In this document: positions 11,864 to 11,986 of the stretch, in pieces
Numbering within the stretch: position 1 is the first letter of the stretch
Layout: every line of letters starts with the position of its first letter
IMG/VR virus record: IMGVR_UViG_2778261139_000010
Source of the DNA: a virus
Taxonomy: Duplodnaviria > Heunggongvirae > Uroviricota > Caudoviricetes
Length of the DNA stretch: 16,410 nt
Strand: one strand, 5' to 3'
Notes under the pieces: model-generated
Told to the model about the DNA's origin: nothing
Database searches by the model: none
Seen by the model: only the letters and a program-made list of their open reading frames with translations
Position numbers and translations under genes: made by a program

Positions 11864-11986
11864 TGAGGCTGTATGACGGGGTGGGGGGCGTTTTCAGGAC
11901 AAACCCGACCCCGCCGGGCACCGAACGCCTCCTCAAATTTTTATGCACGGGAATTTTTTGAAAAATAATCTGGCGAAAAAATAAGC
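11864..11986. other. Candidate packaging (cos) region: GC-rich block followed by an AT-rich tract upstream of TerS
   Basis: GACGGGGTGGGGGGCG...CCCGACCCCGCCGGGC then TTTTTATGCACGGGAATTTTTTGAAAAATAATCTGGCGAAAAAATAAG. Assignment is positional inference only. Confidence 0.3.

Follow-up and report, generated by a model that had tools for sequence, protein, structure and literature searches.

The island and its packaging genes

The stretch of DNA analysed here, the 16,410-nt record IMGVR_UViG_2778261139_000010 (hereafter the window), is a capsid-forming PICI (cf-PICI) of the EcCIEDL933 type. Capsid-forming PICIs are widespread, recently described satellites that package only their own DNA into small capsids of their own and then borrow tails, even across species. 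Membership of this group was judged by an int-alpA-replication module, by genes for capsid, protease, portal, connectors, HNH, TerS and TerL, by the absence of tail genes and by a size of about 15 kb. Open reading frames and matches to Pfam and PHROG revealed in the window an int-alpA-replication module and a set running from capsid to TerL, with no tail genes, and the gene organisation is the same as that of published EcCIEDL933-type cf-PICIs (10.1101/2022.09.08.507074). A 501-nt query covering 11600-12100 (the end of the HNH gene, a small ORF, the gap that follows it and the start of terS) matched 489 of 5,426 complete E. coli genomes, with 99.4% identity in six O157:H7 strains among the matches listed. 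The genes are arranged as follows.

1-1230: integrase
Between the integrase and the head operon: replication module
7599-8804: capsid
8844-9416: prohead protease
9418-10629: portal
10584-10964: head completion protein
10961-11257: connector
11257-11697, plus strand: HNH endonuclease, a packaging accessory nuclease (gp74-like; Pfam HNH, E = 1.8e-8; phrog_144, E = 8e-45)
11690-11863, plus strand: conserved 57-aa ORF, hypothetical protein (phrog_3173, full-length match, E = 6e-37)
11864-11986, plus strand: predicted cos region (non-coding, with a GC-to-AT switch, conserved blocks at fixed spacing and the record ends of relatives)
11987-12343, plus strand: small terminase TerS, P27 family, 118 aa
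12327-13988, plus strand: large terminase TerL, ATPase and nuclease (Pfam TerL_ATPase, TerL_nuclease)
14002-14283: 93-aa ORF
14950-16410, opposite strand: phoQ

The 57-aa ORF, which is labelled 'hypothetical protein' in E. coli genomes, overlaps the 3' end of the HNH gene, and its stop codon forms the left edge of the gap. The 123 bases from 11864 to 11986 are the entire non-coding interval between this stop codon and the TerS start codon at 11987. A preliminary description of the window had portrayed this interval as a GC-rich block with partial dyad symmetry, followed by an AT-rich tract directly 5' of the small terminase gene. The compositional switch is pronounced: GC content falls from 67.6% over 11864-11934 to 26.9% over 11935-11986. 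Within the window, the 55-nt GC-rich block ranks at the 99.8th percentile and its 49-nt AT-rich counterpart at the 0.8th, and the contrast between them is in the top 5 among 16,290 positions. The dyad is also present, as CGGGGTGGGG and CCCGACCCCG (10-nt arms, 90% complementary, 17 nt between them), but it is not retained in relatives, and the single-strand folding energy of the gap is unexceptional (z = -0.97; 30 of 200 shuffles fold equally well). The dyad is incidental and was the weakest part of that first observation. Hairpins in a variable spacer within the gap were also considered as a structured element and rejected; the spacer variants each form short stems, but the pairing register is inconsistent among them.

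Conservation and record ends in relatives

Early scans of IMG/VR were keyed on motifs of the gap itself and, being circular, could only suggest an architecture. The architecture that they suggested starts with a G-run, followed by a spacer constant in length but free in sequence and then by a strongly conserved block with the consensus ACC..CCGCC.CCTCAAATTTTT..GC.CGG...TTTTTT(T)GAAAATAA. We also assembled a bias-free set of 80 loci, selected by TerL protein alone from one-genome-per-species contigs, that includes Enterobacterales, Aeromonas, Pasteurellales (Pasteurellaceae) and Gilliamella. The terS gene was located by reading frame, and alignment of the 190 nt upstream yielded 65 distinct sequences.

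Across these 65 TerL-selected loci, conservation was 1.18 bits in the G-run (11878-11888), 1.25 bits over 11920-11932, 1.42 bits over 11933-11959 and 1.32 bits over 11960-11968. By the same measure, the first, second and third codon positions of TerS scored 1.12, 1.21 and 0.59 bits, the upstream small ORF 0.36 bits and the intervening spacers 0.33-0.65 bits. The four non-coding blocks match TerS codon positions 1 and 2 in conservation and lie far above third positions and spacers, and the bases right before the TerS ATG are among the least conserved. The internal geometry is rigid, with 52-56 nt separating the G-run from an A(A/T)TTTT motif (block B) in 56 of the 61 loci that have both. The distance from this motif to the TerS start codon ranges from 36 to 154 nt across loci, and in two Pasteurellaceae copies (L347 and L350) the block is intact despite about 100 nt inserted before the TerS ATG. 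Pasteurella phage Pmp8, which was reached through its TerS protein (66% identity), is built in the same way, though it does not match the search key.

In the window the block-B motif has a single occurrence, and 200 shuffles produced none. It is followed by TerS at 368 of 370 sites and preceded by HNH at 362 of 366. We searched for cos sites lacking packaging genes, such as might belong to satellite hijackers or plasmids, and found none among these 370 sites; the matches on plasmids are whole cf-PICIs or chromosome fragments. The satellite's site was likewise absent from all bona fide phages among 50,697 records.

In the whole-genome records of three independent relatives, the genome ends or an assembly gap fall inside the homologous interval. 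The first is an IMG/VR metagenome contig, IMGVR_UViG_3300022664_000095, of 15,518 nt and with the gene order terS-terL...int...capsid...HNH-small ORF. Its first base maps by BLAST to window position 11932, where it begins CTCAAATTTTT (start CTCAAATTTTTACGCACGG; in a longer reading, CTCAAATTTTTACGCACGGTG), and it ends in ...CAAGGCAC (in a longer reading, ...GCAAGGCAC), the final GGCAC corresponding to window position 11921. Relatives read GGCAC-CACCCGCCCC-CTCAAATTTTT at this point, and the contig is without exactly those 10 nt. The second record, NZ_CP069874.1, is deposited as 'plasmid unnamed2' of K. pneumoniae FDAARGOS_1323 (15,995 nt) and is a cf-PICI. It is a different cf-PICI from the metagenome contig, with which it is collinear at 70-92% identity in aligned segments; read in island orientation, it starts at the same base, CTCAAATTTTT (window 11932), and ends in ...GGCACCACCCGCCCC. 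Since this record is flagged circular, it supports the left end only.

The third record is that of vB_KppS-Ant (LR881103.1). Its host for propagation was K. pneumoniae DSM 30104; DNA from the lysate was sequenced with Nextera XT and assembled with SPAdes, and the result was >99% identical to a region of the DSM 30104 genome (PMC8006926). Given this host strain and this level of identity, vB_KppS-Ant is apparently the cf-PICI KpCIDSM30104. Its linear record ends in ...GGGGTGGGGGAGGTTTTCAGGAC and resumes 22 nt before the terS ATG, and the record is without exactly 69 nt, spanning the site, that each of its four closest relatives (95-99.6% identity) has. Libraries made with a transposase typically cover the final few tens of bases of a linear molecule poorly. 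Had the template been permuted or circular, the assembly would have had no gap. Packaged KpCIDSM30104 DNA has been reported to form concatemers through cohesive ends, the site of which was not given (10.1101/2025.02.11.637232).

Transferred to the window by alignment, these ends point to a nick between 11921 and 11922 on the bottom strand and another between 11931 and 11932 on the top strand, leaving a predicted 10-nt overhang, CGAACGCCTC. The overhang is probably 3', as in phage HK97, given that the 10 nt are missing at the contig ends, not duplicated, and that end repair removes 3' overhangs and fills 5' ones. The right end comes from a single contig, which, together with the analogy with HK97 and the assumed trimming by end repair, is the basis for a length of 10 nt and a 3' polarity. 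The nicks were derived from HK97 geometry and the right end of contig L087 before either left end was retrieved, and both left ends, those of the metagenome contig and of NZ_CP069874.1, then landed on the expected base. In these relatives the ends at the site are unique and non-permuted, with two collinear unit-length records sharing a start base. In addition, contig L064, which shares the sequence type of the window, has its end at 11922, 1 nt off the end of L087.

Only unit-length records were relied on for termini, because draft contig breaks near terS are often repeat artefacts. Draft contig ends were rejected as termini: because the element is multi-copy, contigs of Xenorhabdus and Serratia are broken at a variety of points in or near the region. 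In many loci, an apparent end close to the motif was no more than a database segment boundary. A metagenome-wide scan with 90 matches returned no contig starting at the site, and in PQ569648.1 a truncated terS is joined to unrelated DNA, which says nothing on the site.

The site as predicted from these comparisons has the following parts.

11878-11888, plus strand: upstream G-run GGGGTGGGGGG, 1.18 bits, at a constant distance from the cut
11901-11919, plus strand: spacer of fixed length and free sequence, 0.63 bits, close to TerS third codon positions
11922-11931, plus strand: predicted 10-nt 3' cohesive end, from the ends of relatives' records
11932-11968, plus strand: conserved left-end block CTCAAATTTTTATGCACGGGAATTTTTTGAAAAATAA, predicted TerS recognition site, 1.32-1.42 bits, the most conserved non-coding stretch

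The G-run is possibly a termination or nuclease-positioning element. The spacer at 11901-11919 has many different sequences but one length in relatives, and appears to be length-constrained and not structured. We also considered the variable spacer as a lineage-specific determinant for TerS; this is unlikely, as the same type of sequence to the left of the cut is paired with several types on the TerS side, and vice versa. Within the left-end block, the core CGGGAA-TTTTTT lies at about +17 to +28 from the predicted top-strand nick.

Comparison with the helper and alternative readings

HK106 is a documented helper of EcCIEDL933, and in this pair phage and satellite package independently of each other and each to the exclusion of the other (10.1101/2022.09.08.507074). 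The HK106 TerS is 100% identical to HK97 gp1, and the HK106 cos region is the same as that of HK97. The ends of HK97 DNA carry 10-nt 3' overhangs (PMC9410871, PMC11331095), and HK97 TerS binds from +15 to +29, CTAACCCGATTTTTT, with base contacts to T16 and the position-21 G:C pair and a requirement for the A-tract at 24-29 (PMC11331095). The hallmark of HK97-type cos packaging is an HNH gene beside the terminase (Kala et al. 2014, via PMC11331095 and PMC9410871), and the window carries HNH, small ORF, gap, TerS and TerL in that order.

The likeness to HK97 extends to the layout of the site. In both, the HNH gene region is on one side of the site and terS on the other, and the left end falls about 50-55 nt before the terS start. 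In HK97 the G-run is followed by 42 nt to the top-strand nick and by a T-tract from +24, so that G-run and T-tract are 65 nt apart; the distance from the end of the G-run at 11888 to the start of the T-tract at 11954 in the window is 65 nt too, as it is in HK106. Measured from the predicted nick, the satellite T-tract starts at +23, compared with +24 in HK97. The bottom-strand nick falls after ...AC|C in HK97 and, by prediction, in the satellite. Both have a C-rich overhang region; the overhang is 10 nt and 3' in HK97 and is predicted to be so in the satellite. In both, a GC triplet and then a T-tract lie at about +17 to +29, the stretch bound by TerS in HK97. The conserved CGG(N3)T6-7 at +17 to +28 matches the layout of the HK97 TerS site, and the match of the satellite TerS fold to 8POP is weak. 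The nucleases on which cutting would depend are related as well, TerL being 27% identical to HK97 gp2 (E = 7e-47) and HNH 39% identical to HK97 gp74 (E = 2e-19).

The bases themselves differ. The overhang is predicted to be CGAACGCCTC in the satellite and is CGCCGCCAAA in HK97, the latter read from the end of the HK97 GenBank record on the assumption that the record begins at the top-strand nick, and the analogue of the TerS site is CACGGGAATTTTTT in the satellite and CTAACCCGATTTTTT in HK97. The satellite TerS (P27/Terminase_4, 118 aa) and gp1 fall into different Pfam families, and no sequence similarity was found between the TerS proteins of the satellite and of HK97/HK106. The satellite also differs from HK97 in packaging about 15.5 kb into T=4 capsids. 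When anchored at the nick, ungapped identity to HK97 is 39 of 100 positions for the window and 46 of 100 for the commonest variant, against a background of 24.9 +/- 4.6 at 800 other offsets, with offsets -1 and -2 scoring as well as 0. When gaps were allowed, local alignments between the HK97 cos and three sequences (the window, the commonest variant and Pmp8) gave scores equalled by 238-742 of 1000 shuffles. Because the gapped alignment is not significant, we claim a shared layout and not sequence homology.

Together, these observations indicate that 11864-11986 is very probably the cos site of an EcCIEDL933-type cf-PICI, built like that of HK97, a reading to which we assign a probability of roughly 85%. 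Within it, the exact nicks, the 3' polarity, TerS binding and the role of the G-run in this element are what we infer. The preliminary description had proposed a cos site between the HNH-associated ORF and TerS, and had argued that a site different from the helper's would explain how the satellite terminase packages its own DNA selectively. Its placement of the site agrees with the conserved blocks and the record ends of relatives, all of them sequence data. The difference from the helper is likewise seen, as both the cos and the TerS of HK106 are those of HK97 and alignment to that cos is not significant; the same geometry is kept, so the two sites are not unrelated. As far as these data go, the difference fits a satellite terminase that packages its own DNA selectively.

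The alternative that fares best, although we consider it improbable, is a cos site that is cut or recognised by the helper's terminase, in which case the site itself would give no selectivity. The common geometry, with G-run, C-rich overhang, GC triplet and T-tract at equal distances, and the homology of the satellite TerL and HNH to those of the helper speak for such an arrangement. However, HK97 TerS contacts +16 and +21 and needs its own bound sequence (PMC11331095), and the satellite bases differ there; HK106 terL mutants still yield PICI-sized packaged DNA, with the island packaging genes required (10.1101/2022.09.08.507074); and the satellite sequence is found in no phage record among the 50,697. 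TerL and HNH by themselves may still cleave across the two systems.

A slighter chance still is that the conserved gap serves terS-terL expression, as a promoter, a terminator or antiterminator, a leader RNA or a translation signal, and is not a packaging site. The gap does immediately precede terS, regulatory leaders can contain A/T tracts and a G+C-rich dyad, and the sole promoter-like match nearby lies on the opposite strand. Against this, neither a promoter nor a terminator pattern was seen on the plus strand of the gap; with no Rfam match at E <= 0.1 and an unexceptional folding score, an RNA element is rejected as well. The blocks keep a constant distance from one another, but their distance to the start codon varies more than fourfold, the bases just before the ATG are poorly conserved, and genome records end inside the element. 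From its protein-like conservation, its rigid internal geometry and its lack of a fixed relation to the start codon, we conclude on sequence grounds that the gap is a DNA site for a protein machine and not an expression signal.

The least probable alternative is headful (pac) packaging from a site in or near terS, where many small-terminase systems have one, with the record ends as assembly accidents of the kind that often break draft contigs around multi-copy cf-PICI sequence; yet two unrelated, collinear, unit-length assemblies begin at the identical nucleotide, one of them is without exactly 10 nt between its ends and has no redundancy, the particle-derived vB_KppS-Ant assembly is linear with a gap and is not a closed permuted circle, HNH adjoins the terminase in the HK97-type manner (Kala et al. 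2014, via PMC11331095 and PMC9410871), and KpCIDSM30104 DNA is reported to form cohesive-end concatemers (10.1101/2025.02.11.637232).

A proposed packaging model and its implications

With the HK97-like cos site as the preferred reading, packaging may be pictured by analogy as follows. After excision and replication of the island, its TerS would bind the block to the right of the cut, at about 11944-11959 (CACGGGAA-TTTTTT, flanked by A/T tracts), and the bound TerS would position the island's TerL and HNH nucleases. These would nick the two strands at the positions predicted above, leaving 10-nt 3' ends, and packaging would then proceed rightward from CTCAAATTTTT through terS and terL and around the unit genome to the next cos. 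The G-run, at its fixed upstream distance, would belong to the site and might act in termination or in nuclease positioning. In HK106 the same geometry is combined with other overhang and TerS-site bases and with a TerS unrelated in sequence, as would suit terminases that each choose only their own DNA. The island's own packaging genes are required for its transfer (10.1101/2022.09.08.507074). Retention of the nuclease-dependent geometry, with replacement of TerS and of the bases that it would read, fits the mutual exclusivity of packaging.

Several known systems provide points of reference. In P4, in cos SaPIs such as SaPIbov5 and in EcCICFT073-type PICIs with Rpp, a satellite-carried cos likewise directs DNA into capsids, and SaPIbov5-type systems also use HNH-dependent cos packaging (10.1101/2022.09.08.507074). 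Those classical satellites use the helper terminase, either copying the helper cos or retargeting the helper TerS through Rpp; the cos described here, in contrast, belongs to the satellite's own TerS-TerL-HNH set and is found only beside those genes (368 of 370). Like the cosQ-cosN-cosB of lambda, the site may be tripartite, with an upstream element, a nicking site and a TerS-binding region beside the small terminase gene, and as in lambda packaging would run from the terS-proximal end. Lambda, however, has 5' overhangs and an IHF-assisted Nu1 acting on R elements, and has no HNH partner. In the satellite, the 10 nt are absent from the contig ends and not duplicated, TerS is of the P27 family, and repeated R-like elements were not seen within 11650-12100.

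What emerges is, very probably, an HK97-type, HNH-dependent cos of a cf-PICI, of the expected kind and in the expected place, now predicted to the base. The position and sequence of the cos are given in neither of the two papers that state exclusive packaging (10.1101/2022.09.08.507074) and cohesive ends (10.1101/2025.02.11.637232). A base-level prediction, comprising the left end CTCAAATTTTT, the overhang CGAACGCCTC and the TerS block at 11944-11959, makes the selectivity of packaging directly testable.

One tentative idea, which we regard as rather doubtful, is that satellite and helper have a single cutting geometry in common, read by homologous TerL-HNH pairs, and that only the bases of the TerS-binding block and TerS itself have been exchanged. 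The geometry meant here comprises the G-run, the fixed spacer, the 10-nt C-rich 3' overhang (predicted in the satellite) and the TerS site at +15 to +29. If this is true, specificity would be a swappable module, about 40 bp (11932-11968) together with terS would retarget any DNA into satellite capsids, and TerL and HNH might cut across between helper and satellite. The pairing of one left-of-cut type with different right-of-cut types, and the reverse, further suggests that cos is also a preferred recombination joint at which head and terminase modules are shuffled among cf-PICIs.

The predicted site may represent a minimal cis element for loading designed DNA into cf-PICI capsids. As a motif, it also allows cf-PICIs, with their true linear ends, to be recognised in genomes and viromes, where some of them are currently labelled as plasmids or as a "filamentous phage".

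Annotation, loss and possible exchange at the cos region

Among IMG/VR and metagenome loci, over the equivalent of window positions 11901-11986, a given left-of-cut type, that is, a type of the variable spacer, was found paired with several right-of-cut types, the latter being represented by the pre-ATG segment adjoining terS, and the reverse was also observed. Recombination may join the head module to the terminase module at the cos region.

Many sources call TerS in relatives (proteins P0005-P0063, approximately 89% identical to the product of window 11987-12343) as a 165-aa protein, as opposed to the 118-aa form. 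These calls include 47 extra N-terminal residues, and the extension would run right across the cos gap. The longer protein is probably a start-codon miscall that masks a non-coding site.

A relative in Shigella flexneri (CP182556.1), the TerL of which is 99% identical to that of the window, exhibits a clean 98-nt deletion with an aligned range of window 11910-12007. This deletion, which is flanked by short C-rich direct repeats (CCCGACCCCGCC / GCCCCCGCC), takes out the cos core together with the terS start codon. This copy looks like a disabled island in which self-packaging would have been lost.

Content of two other regions

Directly after terL, several Klebsiella-type cf-PICIs encode a very large ORF (~760-1150 aa) that is annotated as a tape measure protein.

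Large ORFs after terL, in the position equivalent to window 14002-14283
L045, 9668-13132
L001 (LR881103.1), 2036-4333
L436 (CP018459.1), 10983-14390

The same slot of the window (14002-14283) contains only a 93-aa ORF (phrog_1561). The post-terL position is a variable accessory slot.

Within window 1250-4550, no real-looking ORF longer than approximately 130 aa was found; a 522-aa frame located there, with an internal repeat inside it, was rejected as spurious. In the equivalent region of related E. coli genomes, only short genes are annotated.

Genes annotated in related E. coli, equivalent of window 1250-4550
HTH (helix-turn-helix) regulator
two YlcI/YnfO family genes
Icd-like gene
DUF4222

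A weak Rfam match to BSnc120 at window 1381-1462 (27 bits, against a threshold of 114 bits) probably arose by chance.

Database records and copy number

Two complete cf-PICIs, both from Klebsiella, have been deposited as small circular 'plasmids' (NZ_CP069874.1, 15,995 bp; CP018459.1, 16,971 bp); both contain int, replication genes, the capsid module, HNH, TerS and TerL. Such misfiling as a separate replicon seems to result from assembly of excised or packaged cf-PICI DNA. A 32.6-kb E. coli 'plasmid' (CP088587.1) is in fact a piece of chromosome in which a cf-PICI lies between pntB and mdtJ as an insertion. Another record, vB_KppS-Ant (LR881103.1), has been labeled a filamentous ssDNA prophage (PMC8006926). 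Its genes include an HK97-like capsid, portal, protease, HNH, TerS and TerL. To judge by the host strain, this record apparently corresponds to KpCIDSM30104, a cf-PICI.

At least five separate contigs encoding this cf-PICI TerL type were found within single Xenorhabdus genomes.

TerL loci in two Xenorhabdus species
Xenorhabdus khoisanae: L288, L293, L307, L330, L337
X. kozodoii: L296, L308, L312, L333, L336

The cf-PICI element is highly multi-copy in these genomes and breaks up their assemblies around terS.
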